Assembly: GCA_032718475.1 (NCBI GenBank)
Contig: JAUCBJ010000593.1
Span: forward strand, 1-64,000
DNA from: Nemertoderma westbladi
Lineage: Eukaryota; Animalia; Xenacoelomorpha
Direction: 5' to 3'
Length of the DNA stretch: 64,000 nt
Positions 14,433 through 37,600 of this stretch are shown piece by piece. A model generated the notes under the pieces. It did not search any database. It worked only from the letters and a program-made list of their open reading frames with translations, and was not told where the DNA came from. The first letter of the stretch is position 1, and each line of letters opens with the position of its first letter. A program made the position numbers and the translations under genes.

Positions 14433-16572
14433 CCCCTCCATCTCCTCTATAAGGCCCCCCCTTCCATATATCCCAGTCTCCCACCTCCCTTCATCTCCTC
14501 TATAAGGTCACCCTTCCATATATCCCAGCCTCCCACCTCCCTCCACCTCCTCTATAAGGGCCCCCTTCCATATATCCCAGCCTCCCACCTCCCTTCATCT
14601 CCTCTATAAGGTCACCCTTCCATATATCCCAGCCTCCCACCTCCCTCCACCTCCTCTATAAGGGCTCTCCTTCAATATATCCCAGCATCCCACCTCCCTC
14701 CACCTCCTCTATAAGGGCCCCCTCCATATATCCCAGCCTCCCACCTCCCTTCATATCCTCTCTAAGGGCTCCCCTTCCATATATATCAGCCTCCCACCTC
14801 CCTCCATCTCCTCTATAAGGGATCCCCTTCCATATATCCCAGCCTCCCACCTCCCTTCATCTCCTCTCTAAGGGCCCCCCTTCCATATATATCAGCCTCC
14901 CACCTCCCTCCATCTCCTCTATAAGGGATCCCCTTCCATATATCCCAGCCTCCCACCTCCCTTCATCTCCTCTCTAAGGGCCCCCCTTCCATATATATCA
15001 GCCTCCCACCTCCCTCCATCTCCTCTATAAGGGATCCCCTTCCATATATCCCAGCCTCCCACCTCCCTTCATCTCCTCTCTAAGGGCCCTCCTTCCATAT
15101 ATCCCAGCCTCCCACCTCCCTCCATCTCCTCTATAAGGGATCCCCTTCCATATATCCCAGCCTCCCACCTCCCTTCATCTCCTCTCTAAGGGCCCCCCTT
15201 CCATATATATCAGCCTCCCACTTCTTTCCATCTCCTCTATAAGGGATCCCCCCCCCCCCACTTCCCTCCATCTCCTCTATAAGTCCTCTCCTTCCATATA
15301 TCCCAGCCTCCCACCTCCCACCATCTCCTCTATAAGTCCTCTCTTTCCATATACCCCAGCCTCCCACATCCCTACATCTCCTCTATAGGGGCTCCCCTTC
15401 CACCTCCCTCCATCTCCTCTATAAGGCCTCTCCTTCCATATATCTCAGCCTCCCACCTCCCTCCATCTTCTCTATAAGGTATCCCCTTCCATATATTCCA
15501 ACCGCCCACCTCCCTTCAGCTCCTCTATAAGGTCACCCTTCCATATATCCCAGCCTCCCACCTCCCTCCACCTCCTCTATAAGGGCTCTCCTTCAATATA
15601 TCCCAGCATCCCACCTCCCTCCACCTCCTCTATAAGGGCCCCCTCCATATATCCCAGTCTCCAACCACCCTCCATCTCCTCTATAAGGCCTCTCCTTCAA
15701 TATATCCCAGCCTCCCACCTCCCTCCATCTTCTCTATAAGGTATCCCCTTCCATATATCCAACCGCCCACCTCCCTTCAGCTCCTCTATAAGGTCACCCT
15801 TCCATATATCCCAGCCTCCCACCTCCCTCCACCTCCTCTATAAGGGCTCTCCTTCAATATATCCCAGCATCCCACCTCCCTCCACCTCCTCTATAAGGGC
15901 CCCCTCCATATATCCCAGTCTCCAACCTCCCTCCATCTCCTCTATAAGGCCTCTCCTTCCATATATCCCAACCTCCCACCTCCCTCCATCTCCTCTATAA
16001 GGCCTCTCCTTCCATATATATCAGCCTCCCACCTCCCTCCATCTCCTCTATAAGGCCTCTCCGCTCTACAACTTGTATTTATTAATGTAGGCCTCTCCTT
16101 CCATATATCCCAACCTCCCACCTCCCTCCATCTCCTCTATAAGGCCTCTCCTTCCATATATCCCAGCCTCCCACCTCCCTCCACCTCCTCTATAAGGGCT
16201 CTCCTTCAATATATCCCAGCATCCCACCTCCCTCCACCTCCTCTATAAGGGCCCCCTTCCATATATCCCAGTCTCCAACCACCCTCCATCTCCTCTATAA
16301 GTCCTCTCCTTCCATATATATCAGCCTCCCACCTCCGTCCATCTCCTCTATAAGGCCTCTCTGCTCTACAACTTGTATTTATTAATGTAGGCCTCTCCTT
16401 CCATATATCCCAACCTCCCACCTCCCTCCATCTCCTCTATAAGGCCTCTCCTTCCATATATCTCAGCCTCCCACCTCCCTCCATCTCCTCTATAAGGCCT
16501 CTCCGCTCTACAACTTGTATTTATTAATGTAGGCCTCTCCTTCCATATATCCCAACCTCCCACCTCCCTCCA
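14433..16572. repeat. CT-rich satellite (~52-bp unit CCTTCCATATATCCCAGCCTCCCACCTCCCTCCATCTCCTCTATAAGG..), left part
   Basis: Tandem copies; the array resumes in register after the LTR element at 31651. Confidence 0.96.
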
Positions 16573-17756
16573 TGTAAAGGCTTTTGCGTAATTAGCCGGT
16601 TATTTTCCCCGTAAAGTACTTTGTAGTTGGTTTAACAGGCATAAAAGGCCTTGTCCTTACTGTACTGTTGTTTTAGAGGACATAAAAGCCATTTCTTCTG
16701 TATGTGTACTTTAGCGGACATGATTAGCAATTTTATGACGCAATGCGCCAAATCCTCTGTAAACAGTGTAGCTACCATGACGACGGCTAACAGCTGATGC
16801 TGTATACGTGGACCTTTTCTTTGTTCTCTGTTCCTTCTTTGTTCGGTCGACCAATCAGAGCGTTTTTTGCCTCTGTGTTAGAGATTGTATATAGAAACTC
16901 GTGGAGTTGAGTCAGTATGTGATTTTGTCCACAGCCTACAACATCGGCTTTGGAACCTCCGTGTTTCAGTCTTTAGTCCAACATTAGTAGGCTTAATTAT
17001 AGAACATATATCCATTATCTCACTCACTTAACTAATCATACATAACATATCATATCTCAATAATCATAACTTACTCATTCATAACTTAACATTGTACTGC
17101 TATTTACTGTCGTTTATTCATTATTTGTTGATGGAATATTATATTTGGAATACTGATAAATAATCAGACACCCCAATCTTCTTGATATACTAAAGGTTAG
17201 AGAGACCGGTTACATATAACGATTGCGACTTACATTAAGTGGTTTGAAGTGAATCTAATGCTATTTTATTGGCCCTACACGTATTGTCTGTTGTTCTCCT
17301 TATATGTGACTAAAATTAGTGAAGGTCAGCAGATTGGTGTGCAACATTGTGCAGTATTGTGTATGATCGTGATTGATAACGAAGCATCTCCTAAAGAATG
17401 CGCCATATACGTGAATCTATAGCCATCCCGTTGTGTCTAGTTTAAGTCATAACTCTGTTTATATATTTAGAGCGCCACGTCCTAAAGGAACTGTTAATAT
17501 TTCCCGAAAGTGAATAATATTTGTCAGAGATTATATATATTACGATCAGTCGAATAATACAGTAGGCCTACCCCGCAATACGGTTAGGCTTCCGAATCCA
17601 ATCTCCCGGGTATATCCAGCGGGTGAATGATCGCGCATAGACTGGTTTCGGTTAATGTAGTGTATCAAATACTTGTCATAGGCTAAAGACTATCTATCAT
17701 CTAAAAGACATCCCAATTTGGCAGGTTAAACTGCTAAAGGTCTGAAAGCGCAAACA
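16573..17756 (+). repeat. 5' LTR (1184 bp)
   Basis: TGTAAAGGC...GCGCAAACA. Differs from the 3' LTR by about 14 substitutions and 1 indel (counted by eye). Confidence 0.95.
16851..16862 (+). promoter_or_regulatory. Candidate LTR CCAAT box (CCAATCAGAGCG)
   Basis: Conserved in the diverged sister LTR (403..414) within an otherwise poorly conserved U3; TATA-like GTATATAGAAA lies ~35 bp downstream. Confidence 0.4.
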
Positions 17757-18730: not shown

Positions 18731-19937
18731 ATTATTCAGAGTTTATGCGATTATTCGCAACATTCATATCCCCAAGTTTATTCCTACAGTAATTGTGCTT
18801 GTTATATATACCGTTATAGTTAAACTAACCCCGGTACTACATCAGGGCTGCTTGGCGTAGGTAAAGACTGGAGATTTTGTGCTTTGGTCACTCTGGCAGA
18901 TACCGTGGTTCTTTTAGCTGTTCAAGTATTTTAACTACTAATTATATTTGTTGTATAAGTACTTGTACCTAATTTAGGGTTTAGTGTACAGTACTTTCCG
19001 AAGGTGATTAGTGTGTAGGCAGTATATTTGTGTTGTAAAGTGGTTAATAGGCACGTTGGTTCTGGTAGACCGCGGTAATTAACTTCTAGGTAGGAACACT
19101 CCGTGATACATAACGTAGTACTTATAGCGATATGGCTATAAGTCGTCAGACGGTGGTATTTTCCTATCTGGACAACGCAGTATATTTACTACTACTTATT
19201 ATTTTCAAATACCGTAGTACCCTGTCCTTTGTAATAACCAGATATTCTAACCCTTTGTTAGGCTGGTTAGTAGACTTCTTGTAAAATTACCCTAAAAATT
19301 CGTACTTGTAAATTTTTGTGTTTATTTAGAGATTGTAATCTCACCCCGAATTGTATGTAATTTGTAGTATTAAGTAACTTAGGTAAATTAGAATTATTTG
19401 TTTTAGTGTCCAACAAGTAGCACTTCACTGAGAGCACACAGCTTCTGTGTAGTGACTCCCCCAGAAATAATAACATTTATTTCAAATATTGACAAAAACC
19501 CATTTTAACGGGTATATATATTATAAATCAACTCAAACCGATTTATAAAATAGTAGGCCTGTCATACAACAATTAGGTCTAAATATCAGTTGGACTACTG
19601 CTTAAATAATGGTAATAAAGTAAGTTAAAGTAACCAAGTAACCCTAAAATTCAGAAATTCAGTTATTCTAAAATAATTGACATACCGGTATTCACGATAG
19701 GCCTATTATATATTTATAAATTTAGGCTGAAATTATACCGGTATTCTGTAATTAATTCTAGTTCATAATTATACTTATATATACTATAAGCATACCGGTA
19801 TTCTAATATATTATATATATATCACGCTACACTGAGTAGCAGTATCGGTAATTAATTACTAGGCTAACAGTGATACTGAATTACTAGACTTGCTTAAACT
19901 GTAATAGAGCAGTAGGCATTCAACTGTACAAACAAAC

Positions 19938-22900
19938 ATGTCTGACACTAAACAAAACCTGTCGGACAGTCTCCTAGATACAACCATCTGTGACCCAGAC
20001 AGGAGTGTGGAACGTGAGAGACCGAAGTTCAATTCACATCCTACTGTAAGAAAGATCATCCCTCCAGTAGTAATATCAGACCCTAGGCTGGTCCAACACC
20101 GTAGGTCTATCATAGGCACTCGAGCTCAGGTCAAGCGGGACCAAGAAGCAGCGGAACCGCAACAACCCGCGAGCCAAGAACTTATTTCTCAACGGCCCGA
20201 CAGCTCCAGTAGTGCGGACACTGTAGAGCTGACACCCGAGCACGGAGCAAAGATGACAGATGCGGTTTATTCGGACCCCCTTCTCATCCTTCCTGCAGCC
20301 GTACTCACTAGGTTATTGATTGCGGTGGAAGAACACCAGATCGATTGGGCGAGAAATAAGCGATCGACTAAAGATAGTTATGCGGGATACACAAGGGAAG
20401 AACTGAAGTCTATTGTCGAGTCGCAATGGAACTTCCCCGGACCCGGACTCCCGTTTGATTTATCAGAAGCTGCCTGGGAAGACATACACAGGATGGGAGT
20501 AACCAAGGAAACCATCGATCCAGCTGTGTGGAAGAGGTCCGCAGCCGGATACGCACAGGGATTCTTCAGCTCTATGGACCGATTAAAAGAACAACTGTTT
20601 CAACAACCCCAAGGACCTCAAGAGCAGGGACAGCTGCTTTATCAAGTTAGAGAAAGAATTCTACGAATCAGGCTAATCTTATCGGCCTTTGAGGAGGCTT
20701 CTAAAAGAAGACAAGACACGTCGTTGCAAGTTGTCGTAAAGACTTGGTTTCAACGGGTGAGTCTCCAGGATCAAGGAACGGCTCAGTGGAAAGCTCAGCT
20801 GGAGGAGCGCTCAACCCATGGAGAATCAACAGACGCTACTTTTTCCCAAGTGGAAAGTGAAGCGACGGCAGAGAAACCGCATAAGAGGGATGCCATTGAC
20901 ATCTATCTGTCAGACTATCAGCGCTTTTTAGGAGATGAAGAGTTGAGGAGAAGGTTAGATGGACTTAGCCCTAATAGTGAAGGAACCCAGCGTGTGTTGG
21001 ACGCCATCGATGTGGATATGAGAGCTGCGAACCAAGCTAGATTTGATGAACGCCTTCGCATCACTAGAGTCCAAGAAGAACAAGTGAAGAAAAAACGTAT
21101 AGAAGACAGAAAGGCAGCGGCAGCAGCAGTGGCAGCTGCAGAAGCAGAAAGAAAAGCGGCAGTAGCAGCGGCAGAGGCAGAGGCGGAAAGAAAAGCGGCA
21201 GCGGCAGAAGCGGAAAGAAAGGCGGCAGTGGCAGCGGCCGAAGCGGAAAGAAAAGCGGCAGAGGCAGTGGCAGAAGCAGAACGGAGAGCGGCTGAAGAAA
21301 CCACCCAATTAGAATTGGAAAACATTCAGGAGAATCAAGACTGCATAAATAAACAGTTAACAGCTAGTAATATGCAGATGATGAATCGATCTACTCCCAA
21401 AAGACAGGGATATACATCATCTGAGGAAGGCGATACCACCGATACTGAAGGCAAAGGAAATAGATCTCGTCTAAGCAGACGTAGAAGAACATCCCACCGT
21501 CAGAAATTGCCTGATTTGCCTCCAGCTGTTAGAAGGCAACTAAATAACACAAACTTAGGTAGTACAGAACCCACAGACCAAATAATTAAAATAGAAAGAC
21601 TCCCTACTATAGTAGATGAGCCTGAAATAATTAGGCCTGTTCCCGAAGCCACCCCTTCGGTGGTAGAGACACCTGTACTCCCTGAACCTACCTCTAAATT
21701 CCCTCTGCACAGCACTAAGCTACCTGTGCCCAGCAGAACAGCCCATGAGACAATCCATGTCCTGGACTCCGAGCGAAATATTAATGATTTGTCGCCCGTT
21801 GTCCCTCGTCCGCCCGCTACAACGTTGGCGGCTCCCTCTTCGGCGGTCGAGTGGGTGGATGAGAGACGATGGGGGATGGATCTCCTGCTCGGGCAGATGC
21901 AGGAGACCGTTCAAAAATTCAAGGGCACAGTAAGGGAAAGTAGGTTAGAGTTGCAAGAAGTGCAGCAAAGTATCGCGCTAGAACGCGATAAATTAGTAAA
22001 TACACAAAAGGGTATACCACCACCCCCTGTAACAATGTGTCAACCTGTTAGGTCTGAAGTGTTTCATGCGCAAGGTGTGGAGCCTACACGCATCTATACT
22101 GCTAGTGAAGTAGAAACTCCTATAGTAAACCCTATTAAGGGTAATTATAAACCTGTTGATAATGATATTCCCTATAGACCTGATCATAATCCGAGAAATT
22201 TATATACCGATAACTCGATATTAAATAACACGATGGCCCAAGAAAGTTTTACGCGTCAAATGGCTAGAACCGAAGCCCGTCAAGCGGTAAAGGTGGGAGA
22301 GATAGTCAAGTTCAATGGAGATGAGATGAAATGGTTACCTTTTAATGAATATTATAAAGATAACATACAGAACTCTGTACTATCTAATGGAGAGAAACTT
22401 AGATTCCTCATCGAGTGCTTGGAAGGAACTCCCAAGTTAATGGCGTTAAAGATTATTGGACATCCCGATGGATTAAGACAAGTTTGGGATACCCTAAACA
22501 TCAGGTATGGTAATAGGACTAACATAGCTAGGTATTTATATGCAAAATTAATGGCGCCCCGAAAGTTTCTTAGCAGCGGGATTATAGAGTTTTCCGACGA
22601 GATTCAGGAGATCTGTAGACAACTAGATTGGTTAGGTAAGTCTCATGAATACCAGAATTCTATGGTTGTAGGAGCCTTAGTATCTAATTTGCCCAAGGGC
22701 GGAGTAGGTACACGCTGGGACAAGACAGTGTTATACATGATGGAACAACAACGAAGAGATCCTACCATGGCTGATCTCATGTCATTCTTAGATGGAGAAG
22801 TGAAATTGCAGCTCCTAAAGCAGTCCAGAGAGAAGACACCGGAAAACAAGGTAAGTGAGAAACCCGTTTCTAGGAAAAAGGTAATACCAGTGTGTTATAC

Positions 22901-24515
22901 AGACGACGGCGAAAGCCAGGCTTCTCAAGAGGAAGACAACGGGAAAGACACTGAAAGATCTTACTATGACAACAAAGCGCTTAAGGACGTAAGTAAATTC
23001 AAGTCTCGAACCAATGACAGGAGAGAACAGGTAAGAAAAACTCCTCCTACGTCTCCTAAGAGAATTCATGTAAGAAAGCCCGAGGAAAGAACGAGTGTGC
23101 ACAACGTTACCCAAAGTAAGGTAAGTAACATCAAACCAAAATGTGTGCTGTGTGACGGGCCCCACCGTTTAAGTGTGTGTGATGAATTCCTAAGGAAATC
23201 ACTAAAGGATAGACGGAAAGTCATGTGGGATAAGCGGTTGTGTTATAATTGCCTCAGACGAGGACACCAACGGCGAACCTGTTACTCCGACGCAAGTAAG
23301 GTAAGTGAGGTAAGTGAGTCCGAACTACATGTCCAATTCAGTGATGTGAACGACACTGACCAAAGTTCTGAGATGGAAGGATTCTATACGGACGAATTCT
23401 CAGACGAAAACGAATCCTGTTACTTAATAAATACCGCAGTGTATCGAGCACTTACGTATGAGAAGGAAACCAACAGTGAGCTCCCCGTAATTACTTCTGA
23501 TCGACAACCATCTTGGAAAGCGCCAACTTCCAATGTAGGAATCCGAGAATTTCCTGTAGTACAGTTAAGGGTCCACGGACCTAAAAGGAGTTATATAGTG
23601 AACGCCCTCCTTGACTCCGGTAGCACAGGAACATTCATCGACAAAGAACTAGCCGAAGACATCTTTGCTGGACAACCCAAGTTCCGAACTAAGCTAAACA
23701 TGTCAGGAATTATGCAGGTTTGGAAATCTACCGTAATAGCGGATTATTATGTAGGCGCGTTGTCCACCCCCCAGGATGAACTAGGAGAACACAGCATAAG
23801 GTCAGTAAAAATGGTCGCGATAAAGAACTTCGCTACCAGCCAAGTGGAACCTTATAACTGGGATGAGGACGATTTCACCCAGCAGCTTGAAATACCTAGA
23901 TTCAACACCGATTACCCTGGAGTCCAAATACTCATCGGTCAAAATGCGCATGAAGCGCTCGAGACATTGGAGAAACGGCCTGCTCAACCGCAACCACTAC
24001 AAGCTTATGCGGGAAGAACTAGAGTGGGTTGGTACTTTACTGGCCCTTCCCGTAGAACTCTCATGGAAAGATTACCGAAAGATCAGGTATATCAATTAAG
24101 TGAACGGGAAGTGGAGAGCAGTGAAGTTGACGACCCAACTGAGGGAACACCATACTCCTCAGATAATGACGATATCCACTCCAATGTAGATCAATGGAGA
24201 CATTGCCCCGAGACGATTAATCTAGCCGACATCGCCTCCAGAGGAGCAACTCCTCAAGAACTGACAGATACTCCAGACTGGTTAGGTGAACCCGACTTCC
24301 TAAGTAAAGAAGATGAATGGCCTCCCCACCTTAACCCGGCTGAGATTAGACAGGCCAAGGGAGCGGAGAAAGTAACACAACCACTCAATCGCCCAGCTGG
24401 TCGTTTATGTTTACTGGAAAGAGACCGAAAACTGTCCAGAAACTATGGAAGGCAAGATACTCTTCCCACGACCACCTCCCTAATCCAACAAATATCTAGG
24501 GACTCCATAACGTAA
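19938..24515 (+). CDS. gag-pro: BEL/Pao Gag-protease polyprotein with RT, most of RNase H and integrase deleted in frame (1525 aa)
   Basis: DUF1759-like Gag core (FNGDEMKWLPF..EKLRFLIECLEG). Zinc knuckles CVLCDGPHRLSVC and CYNCLRRGHQRRTC. Aspartic protease ALLDSGS..ILIG..TRVGWYFTGP. Then the Pao RNase H tail QWRHCPETINLADIASRG..W.GEPDFL..WP and the integrase C-terminal remnant RPAGRLCLLE. No YxDD RT motif. Confidence 0.92.
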   Translation: MSDTKQNLSDSLLDTTICDPDRSVERERPKFNSHPTVRKIIPPVVISDPRLVQHRRSIIGTRAQVKRDQEAAEPQQPASQELISQRPDSSSSADTVELTPEHGAKMTDAVYSDPLLILPAAVLTRLLIAVEEHQIDWARNKRSTKDSYAGYTREELKSIVESQWNFPGPGLPFDLSEAAWEDIHRMGVTKETIDPAVWKRSAAGYAQGFFSSMDRLKEQLFQQPQGPQEQGQLLYQVRERILRIRLILSAFEEASKRRQDTSLQVVVKTWFQRVSLQDQGTAQWKAQLEERSTHGESTDATFSQVESEATAEKPHKRDAIDIYLSDYQRFLGDEELRRRLDGLSPNSEGTQRVLDAIDVDMRAANQARFDERLRITRVQEEQVKKKRIEDRKAAAAAVAAAEAERKAAVAAAEAEAERKAAAAEAERKAAVAAAEAERKAAEAVAEAERRAAEETTQLELENIQENQDCINKQLTASNMQMMNRSTPKRQGYTSSEEGDTTDTEGKGNRSRLSRRRRTSHRQKLPDLPPAVRRQLNNTNLGSTEPTDQIIKIERLPTIVDEPEIIRPVPEATPSVVETPVLPEPTSKFPLHSTKLPVPSRTAHETIHVLDSERNINDLSPVVPRPPATTLAAPSSAVEWVDERRWGMDLLLGQMQETVQKFKGTVRESRLELQEVQQSIALERDKLVNTQKGIPPPPVTMCQPVRSEVFHAQGVEPTRIYTASEVETPIVNPIKGNYKPVDNDIPYRPDHNPRNLYTDNSILNNTMAQESFTRQMARTEARQAVKVGEIVKFNGDEMKWLPFNEYYKDNIQNSVLSNGEKLRFLIECLEGTPKLMALKIIGHPDGLRQVWDTLNIRYGNRTNIARYLYAKLMAPRKFLSSGIIEFSDEIQEICRQLDWLGKSHEYQNSMVVGALVSNLPKGGVGTRWDKTVLYMMEQQRRDPTMADLMSFLDGEVKLQLLKQSREKTPENKVSEKPVSRKKVIPVCYTDDGESQASQEEDNGKDTERSYYDNKALKDVSKFKSRTNDRREQVRKTPPTSPKRIHVRKPEERTSVHNVTQSKVSNIKPKCVLCDGPHRLSVCDEFLRKSLKDRRKVMWDKRLCYNCLRRGHQRRTCYSDASKVSEVSESELHVQFSDVNDTDQSSEMEGFYTDEFSDENESCYLINTAVYRALTYEKETNSELPVITSDRQPSWKAPTSNVGIREFPVVQLRVHGPKRSYIVNALLDSGSTGTFIDKELAEDIFAGQPKFRTKLNMSGIMQVWKSTVIADYYVGALSTPQDELGEHSIRSVKMVAIKNFATSQVEPYNWDEDDFTQQLEIPRFNTDYPGVQILIGQNAHEALETLEKRPAQPQPLQAYAGRTRVGWYFTGPSRRTLMERLPKDQVYQLSEREVESSEVDDPTEGTPYSSDNDDIHSNVDQWRHCPETINLADIASRGATPQELTDTPDWLGEPDFLSKEDEWPPHLNPAEIRQAKGAEKVTQPLNRPAGRLCLLERDRKLSRNYGRQDTLPTTTSLIQQISRDSIT

Positions 24516-25045
24516 CAACATACGGAGTGGGTGTGTGACTATATTATTTTATATTTATTTTATATTATGTATGTATTATTATGTAATTTTATTATAATCG
24601 TTTTCTTTAATTTTATTTAGTAGAATGTTATTTTAGCGATTATTTAGTAGATTAGTGCAATATATATTCGCGTTTATTACTTAATTACTTATATATTATA
24701 TATTTAGTGCGACGGCGAGAAATAATTCTTTTTCTCTTTCCTTACTGTCCGTATTACATTATAAATACGTGACTACAGTAAGATGAAATATCCGTACTTA
24801 TTAAAGTACAATAAAGCTCCTACTATATTCAAGTATTATTGGTAAGCAGGTATTAGGAATGCAAAGTTCAGATCCTCGTGTCTCGGCTAAACCAAGCTCT
24901 GGGTAGACCTTGGAAACGACTTGCCTCTTCTCACTGACATTGCTTCGTGCGATATTGCTCTCATACCGTATATTGAATAATACATATAGTAGCGTGATGT
25001 CCCTTTAACAGTAGCGTAAAACGCAAAATAAATCTGTTAAACCCT

Positions 25046-25321
25046 TTGACCATCTGCAATTCTAGTCGATTAAGATATCGCGGCACCCACCGATATACTT
25101 GAAGGACAAATTCTAGAAGCAGTGGTTAACGTCCCCAGACAAGTTCTGGAATAAACTGGTGCCCATCCTAAATATTAATTATTAATATTTACAAAATCTG
25201 TCAAATTTTAGATCCTTTAAAATTCTAGTCGATTAAGATATCGTAGCACTTACCGATACTCTTAAAAAGACAAAATTCCTAGAATCTAGGATCCCAGTCC
25301 CCAGACACGTTCTGGAATAAA
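25046..25321 (+). other. Two copies of a long imperfect hairpin plus a small stem-loop in the inter-ORF region
   Basis: Copies at ~25046..25155 and ~25210..25321 share ATTCTAGTCGATTAAGATATCG..CCGATA..GACAAA..CTAGAA..GTCCCCAGACA.GTTCTGGAATAAA with nested complementarity. Confidence 0.75.
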
Positions 25322-26140
25322 ATTACGTCTATTTAACATTAAATAATAAAATTTACGGGAATAAATTTAAATTCATATATTTCAATGAATTTAATAAATT
25401 GTCATTTTATACAATTTATAACATTCCCAAAATTCCATTAATTAATAGATCATGGGAGCGGAGATTCACCCTATTAAGTGTATTTGTGTGCGAGAATCTC
25501 CAATATATAGTCAATAGCCGATAAAATTCATAAAATCATATATAGAGAGGATATTGACAATTAAAGAATTACTATTAAATAGCATCCCAGATCTGTATGC
25601 ATGAGAATTACCCTAATTCTACCGCTAGCTTTCCATAATGTCACCATGGCAACAACCACGCTAGAATTAGAAGTGAGTTAAAAGAACAATAGAAGGCTTG
25701 CCCCATTGAATAGCATAGGGAATAAATAGCGCGCTGCTAGTATCCAAGGATACATAATAAATAAAGTGACATTCTGGAAGGTACTGACTAACGGACAAAT
25801 GGCCCGAATGTGTACAGTTTATGGCAGTTGTGTTGAATTTGTGCGTTCATAGGTGAATGTTACTGCTAAAGTGTGTTTACAGTAGCTAGTCGCAATTGTG
25901 AAAGTAACCCTAACTCTCCAGAAAGAACCTGAAGTACATCTAAGCCTTTGGGACGGACAGTGGAGTGACTTGTGCCGGTTATCGTTGTCGTTGTGTAGCT
26001 ACATCATTGGCGAAAGCACAGCGACGACGGTACATCGGCGCTGAGGATCTTGCACTGTCCGGGGGCAAAAGAGGGGTAGGCAGCGACGCCCATAGCCTAT
26101 TATATAAACTCATTATAATATTGATAAACTCATAGCAGAT

Positions 26141-26572
26141 ATGACTGAGTTGATAGAAGATGATCTTGGTATCAGGGAGCGATATACTCTACCTTTACAA
26201 GCGTTTGTCAATAGCTTGATACGCGGCGACGCTGGTCCAACTACTACGGAGGATGATGGTCGTTATATCGAACCACCAATGTCCCCGGAGCAACTTACGC
26301 ATGAATTGGATTATAGAAAGTTCACCGCTCGCTATACGCATCGTAATGGTACGTATATGGACTTCTTAACTACTGGCCATCCTATCGATTTACACGATAC
26401 GGACGATGTAGACACCGAAAGGGAAATGGTTTATTTAAATATCATACCCAGCGGAGTCGGAACGATAAACCGAGAATGGAACACGAGAACTCTATTCGAA
26501 ACAAACTCGAAAGGGAAGACGTTGAAGAGCCAGATAAACGCAGCGACTTTAACGATTATCTGGAATTCCTGA
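26141..26572 (+). CDS. ORF2 N-terminal segment, unknown function
   Basis: ATG-initiated 143-aa ORF overlapping the next segment, whose frame is open from 26347. Confidence 0.5.
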   Translation: MTELIEDDLGIRERYTLPLQAFVNSLIRGDAGPTTTEDDGRYIEPPMSPEQLTHELDYRKFTARYTHRNGTYMDFLTTGHPIDLHDTDDVDTEREMVYLNIIPSGVGTINREWNTRTLFETNSKGKTLKSQINAATLTIIWNS

Positions 26573-27465
26573 GAGAGACATATCTCAATATTGCCAGCCA
26601 ACAAATTCTCGAAACTCGATATCCTCAAGGTATACATCATGACCCTATGATAGAACTCAAACGACTCTATTTCACTATGATGTATCTTACCGCCGATCGA
26701 CCGCTACCTGTCGTTCCAGAAAGCTTCGAACAGATGGAGGAATATTGTAAAACTGGAGAACGATCACCCGCGTTTCCCCTGCAGGACGTGCGTCTTTGGT
26801 ATTACTGCGACGAATGCCCTAGACCCAATCAGCAAACGGAAAGACATAAACATCCGCGGAGACGTTGCGCTAAACACAGTTTTACACGATATACTTATGG
26901 GAGTTTCGAGCGAAACCTGTTCGACGTATCCCCTACGGTCGCTCGACTCAAACAATCCCTGAACAAACCAATGATCATAGTTCCGGAATACTCGGTCAGA
27001 CCTCCTCATTCCTCAGTTAGACCTCAGACTCTTGATCCTAATAGTATCACGGATCCTCCCAAACTGTATTTGCTGTTCAAAGATCTAGTGATACCCGAAC
27101 AGTTGATCGGTGGCACTCCGGTAGTAGGCTCACTAGATATTCGCCAACCCTACCTAACTGGATTGGGACGCGGTCATCCAATATCGCCGTTTAACCCACA
27201 CAACCGTCCCGGCTTCACCTCGATACAACCCGTTACGGAAGTCGAAGAGAGCGTCGTACGAAACGCATTAGACGCTATTCGGCAGAAAATCGGAAAGGGA
27301 ACTTACGATTGTTTGGAGAAACGTAAATTGCAACAACAAGTCCAAGCGGTGAAGGAATTAGCTTTACCCCAGTTCAATAGAGAAATACAAAATCTCGAGG
27401 AGGACATCAAACGTGGACGAACCTACTCTTTACAAGAGTTCCTAGATGAGCGTCTACAACAATAA
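26476..27465 (+). CDS. ORF2 segment 2, with a possible Zn-binding CxxC..H..C motif and C-terminal coiled coil
   Basis: 329-aa non-repetitive ORF containing WYYCDECPRPNQQTERHKHPRRRCAKH; in frame with the next segment. Confidence 0.6.
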   Translation: MEHENSIRNKLEREDVEEPDKRSDFNDYLEFLRETYLNIASQQILETRYPQGIHHDPMIELKRLYFTMMYLTADRPLPVVPESFEQMEEYCKTGERSPAFPLQDVRLWYYCDECPRPNQQTERHKHPRRRCAKHSFTRYTYGSFERNLFDVSPTVARLKQSLNKPMIIVPEYSVRPPHSSVRPQTLDPNSITDPPKLYLLFKDLVIPEQLIGGTPVVGSLDIRQPYLTGLGRGHPISPFNPHNRPGFTSIQPVTEVEESVVRNALDAIRQKIGKGTYDCLEKRKLQQQVQAVKELALPQFNREIQNLEEDIKRGRTYSLQEFLDERLQQ

Positions 27466-27501
27466 GCGGAGGAAAATCAGCTCGAGGAGAGACATATAGA
27501 A

Positions 27502-28737
27502 ATGGATGAGAGAGAAGAAGCAACTTTAGCTCAACCCGAAGCTCAAATCCTTATGACGGATCTCTACTCTAAAACCATCCTTCATCCCTCGATGGTTCCC
27601 CATTTCGGAGACAAACTCTTTGCTACGGTACAACCCCAACCGGTTGATATCAACCTAAGATCTCGAGATCTTATCGCTGACGCTCCCATGTTGCAACGTC
27701 CGCCCATCGAAGCCGCTCGTGTCGATGGTATACTCGTTGAACCTCCGGACAATAGAGCGGATCTTGTCCGTCGCATGGTACACGATGTTAACATACGCGC
27801 TAGACCTTTACCGGACTCGTTTTATGGGATCAAAGATCACCCTTATTACGTCAACCTAACACAATATTACATGGTGAAACCGGAAGATCCTACACATAGT
27901 CTGAGGTTTCTGCCACTCATAAATCCTCTCGATCTTGTCGAACTCGAACAACTGCATAAACATCTGGATCAGTTAGTTAAAATAAACTCATTTCGAAAAC
28001 CATACAATGTTTCCAGAATAGAGAAAGAAACAATACCTCCGTATAATCTTGATGGATTCATCAAAACTCGTTTAGTACACTGGAATCTTGACGTGTTATT
28101 CGAGGAGGAAAGAATTCAACGATATGGAGATGTGGAAACATATACCACACAATATTTAAAGTATAGAGACCTACCTAATGCTAGCGAATGCGCTACCTTG
28201 TGGCATCCTATGGGAATGACCCTCGAAAACGCCACTAAAGAGTGGAATGAGACTCTTAACGTTATCGAGATGTATGGAGTTGTCACCTACGACAACGAAG
28301 GTAGCGTTCCGGTTGGAGAACTGGGAACTACGCGGATGATACACATACGAGGACTCGCTGGTTCTACCCACGTATTTACTCGAGCGTGTTCCGATGTGAT
28401 TGATTATTCTTTTGAGACTCTTACTGAGACACAAAAGAAACTCCGACATGGACAATTCGAACTCGCGCAGCGTTATGTCGCCGACACCGAGCGCAAACCG
28501 GCCATGGGTATCGATGGATCGATGTTACCCCAGCCCGTGCTCGAGATGTTGTTTAACGAAAGAATCCTTAAAATCGGCTCAGCTGTTTATGGAGACCTAC
28601 AAAACGACTTTCGGAATATGGAGAACATTCCATACCCCTTCGTTGATGGTCAGCTGATTGCTCCCTGGGCAGAAGGCCGAGGTTTCTTCCGCACTATGTA
28701 TGCAAATACACCCAGCGGCATTACTAAAGTACAATGA
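27502..28737 (+). CDS. ORF2 segment 3 with ExoI/ExoII motifs of a WRN/EXD/Mut-7-like DEDDy exonuclease
   Basis: VVTYDNEG (ExoI D-x-E), LPQPVLEMLFNERILKIGSAVYGDL (ExoII) and FVDGQLIA. Confidence 0.7.
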   Translation: MDEREEATLAQPEAQILMTDLYSKTILHPSMVPHFGDKLFATVQPQPVDINLRSRDLIADAPMLQRPPIEAARVDGILVEPPDNRADLVRRMVHDVNIRARPLPDSFYGIKDHPYYVNLTQYYMVKPEDPTHSLRFLPLINPLDLVELEQLHKHLDQLVKINSFRKPYNVSRIEKETIPPYNLDGFIKTRLVHWNLDVLFEEERIQRYGDVETYTTQYLKYRDLPNASECATLWHPMGMTLENATKEWNETLNVIEMYGVVTYDNEGSVPVGELGTTRMIHIRGLAGSTHVFTRACSDVIDYSFETLTETQKKLRHGQFELAQRYVADTERKPAMGIDGSMLPQPVLEMLFNERILKIGSAVYGDLQNDFRNMENIPYPFVDGQLIAPWAEGRGFFRTMYANTPSGITKVQ

Positions 28738-28854
28738 ACCTCCATCGGACATCTTGCCTTTCAAGAATACGGATGGAATTTCAAGGTTGGAAATCCTATA
28801 AATTACCAACAAGTATATGGAGATCATTATTCTCGTTTATACTTTGATGGACCA

Positions 28855-30162
28855 TTGACTGCACCTGGCGCCGTGTATAGCTTTATGAGTGTTCCACTTC
28901 GTCCCTCCTTAGCTATATACACGATCTTTGAAAATGCAGCACTTGCCGGTTGGCTAGCCGATGTGTGCAGTCGTACCATACGCGCCCATCCCTTAATACT
29001 TGGAACCAAACTCGCCAAGTTAGATGAACACAATAAATTCATCCGCTTCGAATGTTTCAGGCGCTTTCTGACTCCGTTCCGTAACGTTGATAGTCAGTTC
29101 AAGGACCGCACTCTGACCAAACTCAGCCTAAGAGACTCAGCTGCGGAGAAGCTAAATAGCGCGGGATTTGCTCTCTTTCAGGACGTTTGTATACAGAACT
29201 TACATTCATCTGTTATACAAAGACCCCAAATACCCACGGGTTATTCTGTCGTGGAAGTTCAGACAGTGGGTCCGCTTGCGGAGACAGCCGCACCTACCTC
29301 AGCTATGCAATTGGAAGACGAACCAATCTGCTTAGAGTCTGAAGCGATCCAGCCTACAGCGCCCCGGAGCAGCGATAACGATTACGTCTTGGAGTGGTAT
29401 CAAGGTCCACAATGTCTCACCGCATACGATTATCGACACGCCAACTATGTTTCTCGAAAACGTTGTCGATTATGCGCATCGAGAGACCATTTCACCCCTA
29501 TGGACTCAGACGTACCCTGCTCCTATTTCCACGAACAGCCGATGATGGAGATCTATTGTGCGTATTGCAGACTTAATAACTCGCATATTTTTGCAGTCTG
29601 CCCCCAATTTATGACCCAATGTCACCACTGTCAACTTAAAGGACATGCCAGTTATAATTGCCCCTTTAACCGCGATTTAGAAAGCGTAGATGAGATGATT
29701 ACCCTGCGCTACATCCGAGCTTGGGAAGCGAACGCGGATTTACATTGTGAGGCCCGCCATTGCTACTACCCTGGACGCTCTTACGAGGGAGTTTACGCGT
29801 TCCATCCTTATTTATTCGCGTCTGTGGAACAAAAAACACGCACACCGAGTTACGAACTAATGAAGCGTGTTGGTGAGTGTATTTCCACCAAATTTGTTCG
29901 AAAATATCTTAGGAACGTCAATCCTAATGATATTACTTCATACCATTTGATCAATTACATCCGTCAAGACCCTGAGTATGGCGATTTATTTATTAACTCG
30001 CACCCTGAGTTACAGGAAGTATCTCGACGGCCCTACGAATATCGAGCCCGAGAACGCGAGCTGGAAAGAACCATTAAACCAAGGAAGTTTCTCACCACTC
30101 ACGGTCCACCTACCGCCATTGTCCAGACGACCCGTCAAGGACCCGTCGCCCTAACGCCCTAA
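28855..30162 (+). CDS. ORF2 segment 4: exonuclease ExoIII region plus tandem CCHC zinc knuckles
   Basis: PLTAPGAVYS, CRLCASRDH..C, CAYCRLNNSHIFAVC and CHHCQLKGHASYNC. The listed start is a TTG inside a frame open from 28738. Confidence 0.68.
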   Translation: MTAPGAVYSFMSVPLRPSLAIYTIFENAALAGWLADVCSRTIRAHPLILGTKLAKLDEHNKFIRFECFRRFLTPFRNVDSQFKDRTLTKLSLRDSAAEKLNSAGFALFQDVCIQNLHSSVIQRPQIPTGYSVVEVQTVGPLAETAAPTSAMQLEDEPICLESEAIQPTAPRSSDNDYVLEWYQGPQCLTAYDYRHANYVSRKRCRLCASRDHFTPMDSDVPCSYFHEQPMMEIYCAYCRLNNSHIFAVCPQFMTQCHHCQLKGHASYNCPFNRDLESVDEMITLRYIRAWEANADLHCEARHCYYPGRSYEGVYAFHPYLFASVEQKTRTPSYELMKRVGECISTKFVRKYLRNVNPNDITSYHLINYIRQDPEYGDLFINSHPELQEVSRRPYEYRARERELERTIKPRKFLTTHGPPTAIVQTTRQGPVALTP

Positions 30163-30458
30163 CGCGCCCTAAAGGCCGTTAGACCTTGCTCCACTGAAGT
30201 TGATATCGATCAACCAGGTACCTCGACCGGGGATACACCGATCGTAATCCTAAACCTTCTGATGCAATTGTATTGCACCCTTCACCCAGGAGTTACAGCC
30301 CTCCTAGTAAAGTGGCTCGCCCCAAAGAGAAAAGGACTCTTGCTAGCCTCAAAAAACTACGTAAACGCCGTCCGCGTAAGAAAGACTAACTGTTTAGAGT
30401 ATTTTTATATTTTAGAAACTGTGATTTGTTACATTTTATAGACTTAAATCCCATTTTC

Positions 30459-30467
30459 TGGGAGCGG
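30459..30467 (+). other. Polypurine tract (TGGGAGCGG) preceded by a T-run
   Basis: Directly abuts the TG of the 3' LTR; identical at 77..85. Confidence 0.75.
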
Positions 30468-31650
30468 TGTAAAGGCTTTTGCGTAATTAGCCGGTTATTT
30501 TCCCCGTAAAGTACTTTGTAGTTGGTTTAACAGGCATAAAAGGCCTTGTCCTTACTGTACTGTTGTTTTAGAGGACATAAATGCCATTTCTTCTGTATGT
30601 GTACTTTAGCGGACATGATTAGCAATTTTATGACGCAATGCGCCAAATCCTCTGTAAACAGTGTAGCTACCATGACGACGGCTAACAGCTGATGCTGTAT
30701 ACGTGGACCTTTTCTTTATTCTCTGTTCCTTCTTTGTTCGGTCGACCAATCAGAGCGTTTTTTGCCTCTGTGTTAGAGATTGTATATAGAAACTCGTGGA
30801 GTTGAGTCAGTATGTGATTTTGTCCACAGCCTACAACATCGGCTTTGGAACCTCCGTGTTTCAGTCTTTAGTCCAACATTAGTAGGCTTAATTATAGAAC
30901 GTATATCGTTATCTCACTCACTTAACTAATCATACATAACATATCATATCTCAATAATCATAACTTACTCATTCATAACTTAACATTGTACTGCTATTTA
31001 CTGTCGGTTATTCATTATTTGTTGATGGAATATTATATTTGGAATACTGATAAATAATCAGACACCCCAATCTTCTTGATATACTAAAGGTTAGAGAGAA
31101 CGGTTACATATAATGATTGCGACTTACATTAAGTGGTTTGAAGTGAATCTAATGCTATTTTATAGGCCCTACACGTATTGTCTGTTGTTCTCCTTATATG
31201 TGACTAAAATTAGTGAAGGTCAGCAGATTGGTGTGCAGCATTGTGCAGTATTGTGTATGATCGTGATTGATAACGAAGCATCTCCTAAAGAATGCGCCAT
31301 ATACGTGAATCTATAGCCATCCCGTTGTGTCTAGTTTAAGTCATAACTCTGTTTATATATTTAGAGCGCCATGTCCTAAAGGAACTGTTAATATTTCCCG
31401 AAAGTGAATAATATTTGTCAGAGATTATATATATTACGATCAGTCGAATAATACAGTAGGCCTACCCCGCAATACGGTTAGGCTTCCGAATCCAGTCTCC
31501 CGGGTATATCCAGCGGGTGAATGATAGCGCATAGACTGGTTTCGGCTAATGTAGTGTATCAAATACTTGTCATAGGCTAAAGACTATCTATCATCTAAAA
31601 GACATCCCAATTTGGCAGGTTAAACTGCTAAAGGTCTGAAAGCGCGAACA
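30468..31650 (+). repeat. 3' LTR (1183 bp)
   Basis: TGTAAAGGC...GCGCGAACA followed by the TSD CTCCA. Confidence 0.96.
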
Positions 31651-34600
31651 CTCCATCTCATCTATAAGGCCTCTCCTTCCATATATCCCAGCCTCCCACC
31701 TCCCTCCACCTCCTCTATAAGGGCCCCCTTCCATATATCCCAGTCTCCAACCACCCTCCATCTCCTCTATAAGGCCTCTCCTTCCATATATCTCAGCCTC
31801 CCACCTCCTTCCATCTCCTCTATAAGGCCTCTCCGCTCTACAACTTGTATTTATTAATGTAGGCCTCTCCTTCCATATATCCCAACCTCCCACCTCCCTC
31901 CATCTCCTCTATAAGGCCTCTCCTTCCATATATCTCAGCCTCCCACCTCCCTCCATCTCCTCTATAAGGCCTCTCCGCTCTACAACTTGTATTTACTAAT
32001 GTAGGCCTCTCCTTCCATATATCCCAACCTCCCACCTCCCTCCATCTCCTCTATAAGGCCTCTCCTTCCATATATCCCAGCCTCCCACCTCCCTTCATCT
32101 CCTCTATAAGGTCACCCTTCCATATATCCCAGCCTCCCACCTCCCTCCATCTCCACTATAAGGGCCCCCTTCCATATATCCCAGTCTCCAACCTCCCTTC
32201 ATCTCCTCTCTAAGGGCCCCCCTTCAATATATCCCAGCCTCCCACCTCCCTCCACCTCCTCTATAAGGCCTCTCCTTCCATATATCCCAGCCTCCCACCT
32301 CCCTTCATCTCCTCTATAAGGTCACCCTTCCATATATCCCAGCCTCCCACCTCCCTTCATCTCCTCTCTAAGGGCCCCCCTTCAATATATCCCAGCCTCC
32401 CACCTCCCTCCACCTCCTCTATAAGGCCTCTCCTTCCATATATCCCAGCCTCCCACCTCCCTCCACCTCCTCTATAAGGTCCCTCTTGCATATATCCCAG
32501 CCTCCCACCTCCCTTCATCTCCTCTCTAAGGGCCCCCCTTCCATATATCCCAGCCTCCAACCTCCCTGCATCTCCTCTATAAGTCCTCTCCTTCCATATA
32601 TCCCAACCTCCCACCTCCCTCCATCCCCTCTATAAGGCCTCTCCTTCCATATATCCCAACCTCCCACCTCCCTCCATCCCCTCTATAAGGCCTCTCCTTC
32701 CATATATATCAGCCTCCCACCTCCCTCCACCTCCTCTATAAGGGCTCTCCTTCAATATATCCCAGCATCCCACCTCCCTCCACCTCCTCTATAAGGGCCC
32801 CCTTCCATATATCCCAGTCTCCAACCACCCTCCATCTCCTCTATAAGGCCTCTCCTTCCATATATATCAGCCTCCCACCTCCCTCCATCTCCTCTATAAG
32901 GCCTCTCCGCTCTACAACTTGTATTTATTAATGTAGGCCTCTCCTTCCATATATCCCAACCTCCCACCTCCCTCCATCTCCTCTATAAGGCCTCTCCTTC
33001 CATATATCTCAGCCTCCCACCTCCCTCCATCTCCTCTATAAGGCCTCTCCGCTCTACAACTTGTATTTATTAATGTAGGCCTCTCCTTCCATATATCCCA
33101 GCCTCCCACATCCCTCCATCTCCTCTATAAGGTCTCCCTTCCATATATCCCAGTCTCCAACCACCCTCCATCTCCTCTATAAGGCCTCTCCTTCCATATA
33201 TATCAGCCTCCCACCTCCCTCCACCTCCTCTATAAGGGCTCTCCTTCAATATATCCCAGCATCCCACCTCCCTCCACCTCCTCTATGAGGGCCCCCTTCC
33301 ATATATCCCAGTCTCCCGCCTCCCTCCACCTCCTCTATAAGGCCTCTCCTTCCACATATATCAGCCTCCCACCTCCCTCCATCTCCTCTATAAGGCCTCT
33401 CCGCTCTACAACTTGTATTTATTAATGTAGGCATCTCCTTCCATATATCCCAACCTCCCACCTTCCTCCATCTCCTCTATAAGGCCTCTCCTTCCATATA
33501 TCTCAGCCTCCCACCTCCCTCCATCTCCTCTATAAGGCCTCTCCGCTCTACAACTTGTATTTATTAATGTAGGCCTCTCCTTCCATATATCCCAACCTCC
33601 CACCTCCCTCCATCTCATCTATAAGGCCTCTCCTTCCATATATCCCAGCCTCCCACCTCCCTTCATCTCCTCTATAAGGTCACCCTTCCATATATCCCAG
33701 CCTCCCACCTCCCTCCACCTCCTCTATAAGGGCCCCCTTCCATATATCCCAGTCTCCAACCACCCTCCATCTCCTCTATAAGGCCTCTCCTTCCATATAT
33801 CTCAGCCTCCCACCTCCCTCCATCCCCTCTATAAGGCCTCTCCTTCCATATATCCCAACCTCCCACCTCCCTCCATCTCCTCTATAAGGCCTCTCCGCTC
33901 TACAACTTGTATTTATTAATGTAGGCCTCTCCTTCCATATATCCCAACCTCCCACCTCCCTCCATCCCCTCTATAAGGCCTCTCCTTCCATATATCCCAA
34001 CCTCCCACCTCCCTCCATCCCCTCTATAAGGCCTCTCCTTCCATATATATCAGCCTCCCACCTCCCTCCACCTCCTCTATAAGGGCTCTCCTTCAATATA
34101 TCCCAGCATCCCACCTCCCTCCACCTCCTCTATAAGGGCCCCCTTCCATATATCCCAGTCTCCAACCACCCTCCATCTCCTCTATAAGGCCTCTCCTTCC
34201 ATATATATCAGCCTCCCACCTCCCTCCATCTCCTCTATAAGGCCTCTCCGCTCTACAACTTGTATTTATTAATGTAGGCCTCTCCTTCCATATATCCCAA
34301 CCTCCCACCTCCCTCCATCTCCTCTATAAGGCCTCTCCTTCCATATATCTCAGCCTCCCACCTCCCTCCATCTCCTCTATAAGGCCTCTCCGCTCTACAA
34401 CTTGTATTTATTAATGTAGGCCTCTCCTTCCATATATCCCAGCCTCCCACATCCCTCCATCTCCTCTATAAGGTCTCCCTTCCATATATCCCAGTCTCCA
34501 ACCACCCTCCATCTCCTCTATAAGGCCTCTCCTTCCATATATATCAGCCTCCCACCTCCCTCCACCTCCTCTATAAGGGCTCTCCTTCAATATATCCCAG

Positions 34601-37600
34601 CATCCCACCTCCCTCCACCTCCTCTATGAGGGCCCCCTTCCATATATCCCAGTCTCCCGCCTCCCTCCACCTCCTCTATAAGGCCTCTCCTTCCATATAT
34701 ATCAGCCTCCCACCTCCCTCCATCTCCTCTATAAGGCCTCTCCGCTCTACAACTTGTATTTATTAATGTAGGCATCTCCTTCCATATATCCCAACCTCCC
34801 ACCTCCCTCCATCTCCTCTATAAGGCCTCTCCTTCCATATATCTCAGCCTCCCACCTCCCTCCATCTCCTCTATAAGGCCTCTCCGCTCTACAACTTGTA
34901 TTTATTAATGTAGGCCTCTCCTTCCATATATCCCAACCTCCCACCTCCCTCCATCTCATCTATAAGGCCTCTCCTTCCATATATCCCAGCCTCCCACCTC
35001 CCTTCATCTCCTCTATAAGGTCACCCTTCCATATATCCCAGCCTCCCACCTCCCTCCACCTCCTCTATAAGGGCCCCCTTCCATATATCCCAGTCTCCAA
35101 CCACCCTCCATCTCCTCTATAAGGCCTCTCCTTCCATATATCTCAGCCTCCCACCTCCCTCCATCCCCTCTATAAGGCCTCTCCTTCCATATATCCCAAC
35201 CTCCCACCTCCCTCCATCTCCTCTATAAGGCCTCTCCGCTCTACAACTTGTATTTATTAATGTAGGCCTCTCCTTCCATATATCCCAACCTCCCACCTCC
35301 CTCCATCTCCTCTATAAGGCCTCTCCTTCCATATATCCCAGCCTCCCACCTCCCTTCATCTCCTCTATAAGGTCACCCTTCCATATATCCCAGCCTCCCA
35401 CCTCCCTCCACCTCCTCTATAAGGCCTCTCCTTCCATATATCCCAGTCTCCCACCTCCCTCCATCTCCTCTATAAGGCCTCTCCTTCCATATATCCCAAC
35501 CTCCCACCTCCCACCTCCCTCCACCTCCTCTATAAGGCCCCCCTTCCATATATCCCAACCTCCCACCTCCCTCCATCTCCTCTATAAGGCCTCTCCTTCC
35601 ATATATCCCACCCTCCAACCACCCTCCATCTCCTCTATAAGGCCTCTCCTTCCATATATCCCAGCCTCCCACCTCCCTCCACCTCCTCTATAAGGCCCCC
35701 CCTTCCATATATCCCAGCCTCCCACCTCCCTCCATCCCCTCTATAAGGCCCCCCCTTCCATATATCCCAGCCTCCAACCTCCCTGCATCTCCTCTATAAG
35801 TCCTCTCCTTCCATATATCCCAACCTCCCACCTCCCTCCATCCCCTCTATAAGTCCTCTCCTTCCATATATCCCAACCTCCCACCTCCCTCCACCTCCTC
35901 TATAAGGCCTCTCCTTCCATATATCCCAGCCTCCCACCTCCCTCCACCTCCTCTATAAGGGCTCTCCTTCCATATATCCCAGCCTCCCACCTCCCTCCAT
36001 CTCCTCTATAAGGTCACCCTTCCATATATCCCAGCCTCCCACCTCCCTGCATCTCCTCTATAAGGTCCCCCTTCCATATATCCCAACCTCCCACCTCCCT
36101 CCATCTCCTCTATAAGGCCTCTCCTTCCATATATCCCAGCCTCCCACCTCCCTGCATCTCCTCTATAAGGCCTCTCCTTCCATATATCCCAACCTCCCAC
36201 CTCCCTCCATCTCCTCTATAAGGCCCCCCCTTCCATATATCCCAGCCTCCCACCTCCCTCCATCTCCTCTATAAGTCCTCTCCTTCCATATATCCCAGCC
36301 TCCCACCTCCCTCCATCTCCTCTATAAGGCCTCTCCTTCCATATATCCCAGCCTCCCACCTCCCTCCACCTCCTCTATAAGGCCCCCCCTTCCATATATC
36401 CCAGCCTCCAACCTCCCTGCATCTCCTCTATAAGTCCTCTCCTTCCATATATCCCAACCTCCCACCTCCCTCCACCTCCTCTATAAGGCCCCCCCTTCCA
36501 TATATCCCAGCCTCCAACCTCCCTGCATCTCCTCTATAAGTCCTCTCCTTCCATATATCCCAACCTCCCACCTCCCTCCATCCCCTCTATAAGGCCTCTC
36601 CTTCCATATATCCCAGCCTCCCACCTCCCTCCACCTCCTCTATAAGGCCCCCCCTTCCATATATCCCAGCCTCCCACCTCCCTCCATCTCCTCTATAAGG
36701 TCCTCTCCTTCCATATATCCCAACCTCCCACCTCCCTCCATCTCCTCTATAAGGCCTCTCCTTCCATATATCCCAGCCTCCCACCTCCCTCCACCTCCTC
36801 TATAAGGCCCCCCCTTCCATATATCCCAGCCTCCCACCTCCCTTCATCTCCTTTCTAAGGGCCCCCCTTCCATATATCCCAGCCTCCCACCTCCCTCCAC
36901 CTCCTCTATAAGGTCACCCTTCCATATATCCCAGCCTCCCACCTCCCTCCATCTCCTCTATAAGGCCCCTCCTTCCATATATCCCAGCCTCCCACCTCCC
37001 ACCATCTCCTCTATAAGGCCTCTCCTTCCATATATCCCAACCTCCCGCCTCCCTCCATCCCCTCTATAAGGCCTCTCCTTCCATATATCTCAGCCTCCCA
37101 CCTCCCTCCATCTCCTCTATAAGGCCTCTCCGCTCTACAACTTGTATTTATTAATGTAGGCCTCTCCTTCCATATATCCCAACCTCCCACCTCCCTCCAT
37201 CCCATCTATAAGGCCTCTCCTCCCATATATCCCAGCCTCCCACCTCCCTCCATCTCCTCTATAAGGTCTCCCTTCCATATATCCCAGCCTCCCACCTCCC
37301 TCCATCTCCTCTATAAGGCCTCTCCGCTCTACAACTTGTATTTATTAATGTAGGCCTCTCCTTCCATATATCCCAGCCTCCCACCTCCCTCCATCTCCTC
37401 TATAAGGTCTCCCTTCCATATATCCCAGCCTCCCACCTCCCTCCATCTCCTCTATAAGGCCTCTCCGCTCTACAACTTGTATTTATTAATGTAGGCCTCT
37501 CCTTCCATATATCCCAACCTCCCACCTCCCTCCATCTCCTCTATAAGGCCTCTCCTTCCATATATCCCAACCTCCCGCCTCCCTCCATCTCCTCTATAAG

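Follow-up and report, generated by a model that had tools for sequence, protein, structure and literature searches.

A probable divergent DEDDy-like exonuclease domain in the accessory gene of a BEL/Pao-type LTR retrotransposon from Nemertoderma westbladi

DEDDy exonucleases carrying a DEED motif are encoded by a third open reading frame (ORF3) in the bdelloid rotifer long terminal repeat (LTR) retrotransposons Juno and Vesta and in the Athena/Terminon retroelements, according to the relevant part of Rodriguez et al. (2017, PMC5408684); excerpts of PMC5718144, PMC6431247 and PMC6338049 repeat this description. BEL/Pao elements are metazoan, and the ICTV's Belpaoviridae profile gives them gag, pol and env-like genes only and a size of 4.2-10 kb (PMC8742986). 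Here we analysed a window of 64,000 nucleotides (the whole stretch, positions 1 to 64,000 of contig JAUCBJ010000593.1, assembly GCA_032718475.1) from Nemertoderma westbladi, in whose repeat-rich DNA a 15.1-kb LTR element spans 16573-31650. The element is of BEL/Pao type as judged from its sequence, and its accessory ORF, ORF2, very probably codes for a divergent DEDDy-type exonuclease domain with a presumed RNase H-like fold.

Juno and Vesta are reportedly gypsy-like, and a nematode Cer element is said to carry an exonuclease. As far as the consulted part of the rotifer description goes, ORF2 resembles the ORF3s of Juno, Vesta and Athena in being an extra ORF downstream of pol that replaces env, in being DEDDy-like, in having no transmembrane segment and in apparently keeping its catalytic residues. 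The rotifer elements, in contrast, are not described there as BEL/Pao and give clear HHpred matches with the DEED motif, whereas ORF2, compared by description, goes with a BEL/Pao gag and has a probable D-E-D-E set, sizeable insertions in its loops, CCHC knuckles and about 1,340 codons. None of the Juno, Vesta or Athena ORFs came up in the searches of the protein database and of 1.84 billion representatives, collections that may lack them. DEDDy ORFs in LTR retrotransposons are therefore already published; none of the papers listed by the literature searches describes a BEL/Pao element with an exonuclease. The main text of the BEL/Pao survey PMC3118150 contains neither "nuclease" nor "exonuclease", and the consulted portions of PMC11662393, PMC11599104 and PMC9094657 hold nothing on the subject.

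ORF2 is separate from pol, with no fusion; its region comprises the following features.

26141..30162, forward strand: accessory ORF (ORF2) of about 1,340 codons, located where env would stand, ATG at 26141 (reading frames)
28240..28302, forward strand: predicted helix and beta-1 strand with ExoI D-x-E-G (D28291, E28297), ranked first of 1,251 ORF positions in four profiles
28303..28524, forward strand: predicted beta-2/beta-3 hairpin followed by a presumably helical insertion of about 40-45 residues
28525..28662, forward strand: LP..L..L...ILKIG block, putative ExoII D28594 and a D-x-Q motif at 28645-28653 (profile scores)
28735..28737, forward strand: premature TGA, private to the window copy (contig comparison)
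28882..28986, forward strand: preferred ExoIII, F-x3-PL-x6-Y-x3-E (Y28918, E28930), and a long predicted helix; weak, with negative scores
29557..29661, forward strand: two CCHC-like zinc knuckles starting at 29557 and 29620 (pattern scan; Pfam zf-CCHC_3 at E 0.0064, below the cut-off)
30243..30389, forward strand: Lys/Arg-rich frame, in another reading frame, ending in KKLRKRRPRKKD and a stop; possibly the real ORF2 tail of the family (frame reading)

In the window copy the reading frame of ORF2 shifts somewhere between about 26340 and 26430, and stops at 27463 and 28735 interrupt it further; indels near 26430 are seen in other contigs. An env role for ORF2 was rejected because it has no transmembrane segment, the highest 19-residue hydropathy being 1.19 over 26347-30159.

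An earlier note, made from the letters of the window, had read a WRN-like exonuclease through the TGA at 28735 in VVTYDNEG (D28291, E28297), LPQPVLEMLFNERILKIGSAVYGDL (D28594), FVDGQLIA, SIGHLAFQEYG and FDGPLTAPGAVYSFMS, and all of these lie in one frame where the note placed them. The WRN-like order that it described holds for ExoI and ExoII, which score above shuffled sequences; its ExoIII assignment does not hold as well, since a register 14 codons on scores higher. Profiles were built from 14 RNase D/Pol I-type domains and, once redundancy had been removed from 154 WRN/EXD2-like domains, from 60 of these, with 10 taken as eukaryotic. In HMMER without filters the ExoII block alone scored 9.0 bits with the 60-sequence WRN-like profile and 8.8-9.0 bits over three profiles (0 of 3,000 shuffles for each), 4.4 bits with the 14-sequence profile (0 of 2,000 shuffles) and 23-24 bits when ungapped. 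A block scoring as well as the ExoI helix and strand (D-N-E-G) occurred in 10-22 of 1,000 shuffles. A chain of the three blocks ExoI, ExoII and ExoIII in this order scored 26.8-30.9 against a shuffle maximum of 14.1-16.5 (0 of 1,000), and less than 3 on ORF1 or on the reversed sequence; it replaces a seven-block chain whose last two blocks were placed elsewhere in one profile. Glocal alignment gave z values of 4.2-5.5, reached by 0 of 400 shuffles in each of six settings. In an unbiased scan of 18,950 NCBIfam models, RNase D came first (E 0.075), on the ExoII block around D28594. The shuffle P-values are not blind, because the hypothesis was chosen after the sequence had been viewed.

Several observations weigh against the exonuclease assignment. 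A search of Pfam, which the earlier note had proposed, gave no PF01612 match at E up to 10. There was no sequence relative in the PDB (three chance rows at E 0.9-1.6), no match among 1.84 billion representatives, and none in the protein database at two length ranges or in viral and metagenome contigs; PHROGs gave rows at E 0.1 and 0.29 only. HMMER aligns the ExoII block alone, and hhalign probabilities were 6% and 1.3% with small bacterial alignments. A rival ExoI, S-x-E near 28408 with canonical spacing, was picked by the glocal alignments and by two MAFFT runs; it scores 8-14 bits below D-N-E, which a third MAFFT run picked. A structure model from the single sequence had a predicted local distance difference test score (pLDDT) of 32 and no DEDD match. 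At ExoIII every register scores below zero, the chain of one profile settled on a third place, and the canonical Asp is absent throughout: Y-x3-E or Y-x3-S stands where, among 70 references that have the motif, 69 show Asp and one shows Glu.

These blank libraries, the single block that HMMER aligns and the choice of the hypothesis after the sequence was known would all be expected of a conserved orphan protein outside the DEDD fold, in which the ExoII block is a chance alpha-beta-alpha match. We consider such a protein improbable, since the expected catalytic residues come in the correct sequence on two distinct blocks, each the best in the ORF, and since RNase D led the unbiased NCBIfam scan. 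We keep the reading of a divergent exonuclease domain but class it as DEDDy-like, outside DEDDy (PF01612) proper, because Y-x3-E/S stands at the predicted ExoIII instead of Y-x3-D.

Two registers compete for ExoIII. The first, Y28876/S28888, lies in FDGPLTAPGAVYSFMS, and the second, Y28918/E28930, lies 14 codons downstream in FMSVPLRPSLAIYTIFE; the PL-to-Tyr spacing is exact in both. The downstream register ranks first for the W..PL..Y..D block in three of three profiles, above Y28876/S28888, and is followed by a proline-free run with a helix propensity of 1.11 (mean of 70 references 1.12, minimum 1.01). The Y28876 register has prolines at +6 and +9 and a propensity of 0.97, and among the 70 references a proline between +5 and +9 from the Tyr is seen just once. 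From the Y28876 register the earlier note had concluded that the final Asp appears to be a Ser and that the domain may be catalytically impaired, which was probably a misregistration. The corresponding alternative, a catalytically dead DEDD-fold RNA binder or decoy, would profit from the exact PL-x6-Y spacing and from needing a shorter insertion, the distance from the K motif to the Tyr being 31 residues as against 45 in the downstream register and 26 in Egalitarian (Egl); inactive EXD1 and Maelstrom are also described, in the literature excerpts at hand, as acting in PIWI-interacting RNA (piRNA) pathways. Given the lower block scores, the helix-breaking prolines and the kept ExoI and ExoII carboxylates, we think it improbable that the domain is dead in this way. 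ExoIII is likely, though not certainly, at Y28918/E28930, with an acidic fourth residue, since scores are negative in both registers, a third place was picked once and the rival register needs a shorter insertion. For the active site as a whole we lean slightly towards a D-E-D-E/Y set.

The family was followed in contigs of four sequencing runs, which represent related copies and not independent events. Five of the nine listed runs, from four studies, contain the ORF2 stretch or part of it; the best of them is possibly the source sample itself, and no RNA run is listed among them. An assembly error as the source of the whole ORF2 was ruled out because contigs of four of four runs cover all 30 bins of the stretch. 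At 28735, 99.8%, 99.8%, 100% and 100% of the contig depth in the four runs (43, 25, 4 and 2 contigs) differs from the window. The TGA is therefore private to the window copy, as a mutation or a base-call error.

The earlier note had also suggested comparing selection across copies. Among the best-supported 40 of 125 differences in 28230-28960, 39 were classed after the stop site was left out, and 34 of these are silent. All 34 lie at third positions, and changes of the same kinds would be expected to give 11.8 silent ones (34 was reached by 0 of a million simulations). The one change in a putative catalytic codon (28293), among the same best-supported 40, is silent. Because of this excess and of the absence of the TGA in other copies, the family appears to keep the domain region under purifying selection. 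The count over the whole ORF2 speaks against this, with 17 silent and 15 non-silent main-frame differences (n = 32 of the 40 listed out of 1,271); that list favours sites at which the window copy departs from nearly all the others and may reflect this copy's own changes after insertion.

The region is also modular. In two studies there are contigs in which 27502, where an in-frame ATG begins, is joined to 30231-30250; other contigs join 26507 to 29313. The sides of the joints are short, 24-35 letters in the first case, and were matched at 80% likeness. Judging from these joints, there are DNA variants of the family that lack the exonuclease, or both it and the knuckles. The joined variants could be either deletions or the state before capture. 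As the cassette is joined out in two studies, the exonuclease would not be needed in cis in every copy.

The modelling that the earlier note had proposed fared unevenly: the single-sequence model failed as described above, and a model guided by an alignment with 20 bacterial WRN-like domains matched EXD1 and WRN in a circular way. The guided model reached a pLDDT of 53 (70-80 within the cores of ExoI and ExoII) and shows residues 243-270 as one continuous helix despite an alignment gap there. Its Foldseek matches were EXD1 (E 8e-4), EXD2, RNase D, Egl and Nibbler, in tied rows, with WRN and Pol I exonuclease domains also among the structural rows; against five DEDD-fold chains it gave Z 9.8-9.1 and a root-mean-square deviation of 4.2-4.5 over 171-191 aligned residues. 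Because it was built on a DEDDy alignment, the guided model is circular, which counts against the assignment in that it indicates compatibility only.

Compared with known exonucleases, the ORF2 domain would, by motif reading, resemble EXD1 and Egl in the D-x-E-G at ExoI and in the S-hydrophobic...K block, and Egl in a D-x-Q at the same 19-residue distance after ExoII; both proteins are also among the top Foldseek rows of the guided model. It differs from both in lying below sequence detection, in being encoded by a transposon and in showing no host-type partner domains by Pfam, and from Egl in having about 41 more residues between ExoI and ExoII. With WRN, EXD2 and Mut-7 (Nibbler) it shares the LP..L..L....ILK.G....D block and the W/F-x3-PL-x6-Y spacing; unlike these, it has no PF01612 match, Glu or Ser at ExoIII, and no MUT7-C (Pfam) or helicase domain. 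The Trypanosoma brucei RNase D with CCHC (PDB 7c42-7c4c, solved with U12 RNA) likewise joins a DEDDy domain to a CCHC knuckle, although there is no sequence match and the analogy is one of architecture only.

The likeness to Egl brings in a different role, in which the DEDDy-like domain would serve the element's own RNA, by binding or trimming genomic RNA or as an Egalitarian-like adaptor, with catalysis incidental. Motif reading pairs the D-x-E-G, the Gln 19 residues past the Asp of ExoII and the S-I...K block with the RNA-touching residues of Egl, given as E563/G564, Q640, S662/L663 and K678 in the consulted part of bioRxiv 2025.08.03.668247. According to the same part, Egl keeps all five catalytic residues without needing them and carries I-factor RNA. 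In the Foldseek comparison EXD1 came out on top even though only bacterial WRN-like domains had gone into the guiding alignment. For the rotifer ORFs, Rodriguez et al. prefer a role in processing the 3' ends of element RNA, as far as the excerpted text goes (PMC5408684). Set against this, the likeness to Egl and EXD1 was read from motifs by residue number, the structural rows, tied with one another, derive from a circular model, and cassette-less variants exist. We regard service to the element's own RNA as somewhat unlikely, yet as the closest competitor of the function proposed below.

We tentatively propose that the ORF2 product is a trans-acting exoribonuclease that would shorten or degrade the host small RNAs targeting the element, a chain that, taken whole, may well fail. 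A BEL/Pao family would carry, after pol, a large accessory gene apparently under purifying selection. The middle of its protein is likely a divergent 3'-5' exonuclease of DEDDy type, linked to zinc knuckles, with four acidic active-site residues predicted to be kept. RNA would be the substrate, as suggested by the knuckles and by the analogous trypanosome CCHC-RNase D, whose structure was solved with U12 RNA; the enzyme may act in trans on silencing RNAs. Trimming or destruction of these RNAs would counter the small-RNA defence of the host. Exonucleases borne by viruses against host defence are known in arenaviruses, as stated in a portion of PMC7968707.

The same portion of PMC7968707 relates that the nidovirus ExoN allowed genome growth. 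This bears on a helper for reverse transcription that would act on DNA, by proofreading or by trimming ends of complementary DNA, and the element measures 15 kb even with pol mostly deleted; WRN and Pol I domains also appear among the structural rows. A helper of this kind seems very unlikely, since ORF2 is a separate ORF and not fused to pol, the zinc knuckles point to RNA and the structural rows are circular. Within the small-RNA proposal, a more specific history is that a BEL/Pao lineage captured an EXD1/Egalitarian-type host domain, fused it to knuckles and retuned it to D-E-D-E/Y, giving an enzymatic suppressor of piRNA silencing in trans; we judge this version unlikely and offer it as speculation.

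The element that carries ORF2 has the following further features.

16568..16572 and 31651-31655: left and right copies of a 5-bp target-site duplication, inside a 53-bp satellite array
16573..17756, forward strand: 5' LTR, TG...CA, 1,184 nt (LTR comparison)
19938..24515, forward strand: ORF1, with gag (DUF1759), zinc knuckle, aspartic protease (DSG) and then a short pol-like motif (Pfam and motif reading)
30468..31650, forward strand: 3' LTR, preceded by a short purine-rich tract

The two LTRs and the 5-bp duplication confirm that the region lies, as the earlier note had it, within an LTR element. Between them the LTRs show 14 mismatches and one gap in 1,184 nt; the insertion is young because near-identical TG/CA LTRs and a 5-bp duplication lie in the 53-bp satellite. 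DUF1759, which we take to be a mark of BEL/Pao gag, is found above the cut-off at residues 802-930 of the ORF1 protein P0001 (Pfam E 4.7e-12), and the aspartic protease at Pfam E 0.031. The short motif at about 24195-24245 presumably corresponds to one placed after RNase H in BEL/Pao pol. The gag order is that of BEL/Pao, with DUF1759 followed by knuckle and protease, and the LTR length and polypurine tract agree with the BEL/Pao range of 0.2-1.2 kb. No obvious TGG was seen directly 3' of the 5' LTR, at the position of the primer-binding site. Because reverse transcriptase, RNase H and integrase were not detected in this copy by a Pfam scan of ORF1, it is unable to move alone; with pol mostly deleted and ORF2 broken, the copy is dead. 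Like Belpaoviridae, the element has 1.2-kb LTRs, gag-protease order and a third gene after pol; unlike the profile, with its env-like third gene and 4.2-10 kb, it has 15.1 kb and a non-env third gene (PMC8742986).

Two long non-coding stretches lie inside the element, an unusually long leader of 2.2 kb (17757-19937) with a 287-nt repeat at 85%, and 1.6 kb between ORF1 and ORF2 (24516-26140) with a 100-nt repeat; both possibly leave room for an internal promoter or splice signals. In ORF1, about 790 gag residues precede DUF1759 (19938-22300), with an Ala/Glu/Arg repeat and no Pfam match. The 53-bp satellite array around the insertion (14400-16570 and 31651-40000) is C-rich with a strong GC skew. 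Positions 1-1325 of the window hold the 3' end of a related element, of which 96 nt match 30383-30478 at 96%; its LTR is about 75% alike over the last 700 nt and represents a second subfamily with the same purine tract.

Elsewhere in the window, an uninterrupted 429-codon frame with Peptidase_M20 and M20_dimer (47102-48391, reverse strand) is an intronless gene or a retrocopy. A second uninterrupted frame, of 606 codons (50336-52156, forward strand), has all four Pfam domains of phosphoglucomutase/phosphomannomutase in a patch of 55% GC and may be an intronless gene, a retrocopy or a foreign gene. Minisatellites occupy 5090-8957 (39-40 bp), 10453-13680 (38 bp), 53200-55500 (50 bp), 58036-59600 (30 bp) and 61600-64000 (31-34 bp); the long open frames in the first two of these arrays and in the 30-bp array are repeat artefacts.

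If the domain call is true, the capture of DEDDy domains by retroelements would not be confined to rotifers and would have taken place, apparently independently, in BEL/Pao elements as well. Such convergence would argue that the domain is useful to the element, a question open since 2017. Because it offers many copies, purifying selection and variants with and without the cassette, this family would be a good place to ask about anti-silencing enzymes.

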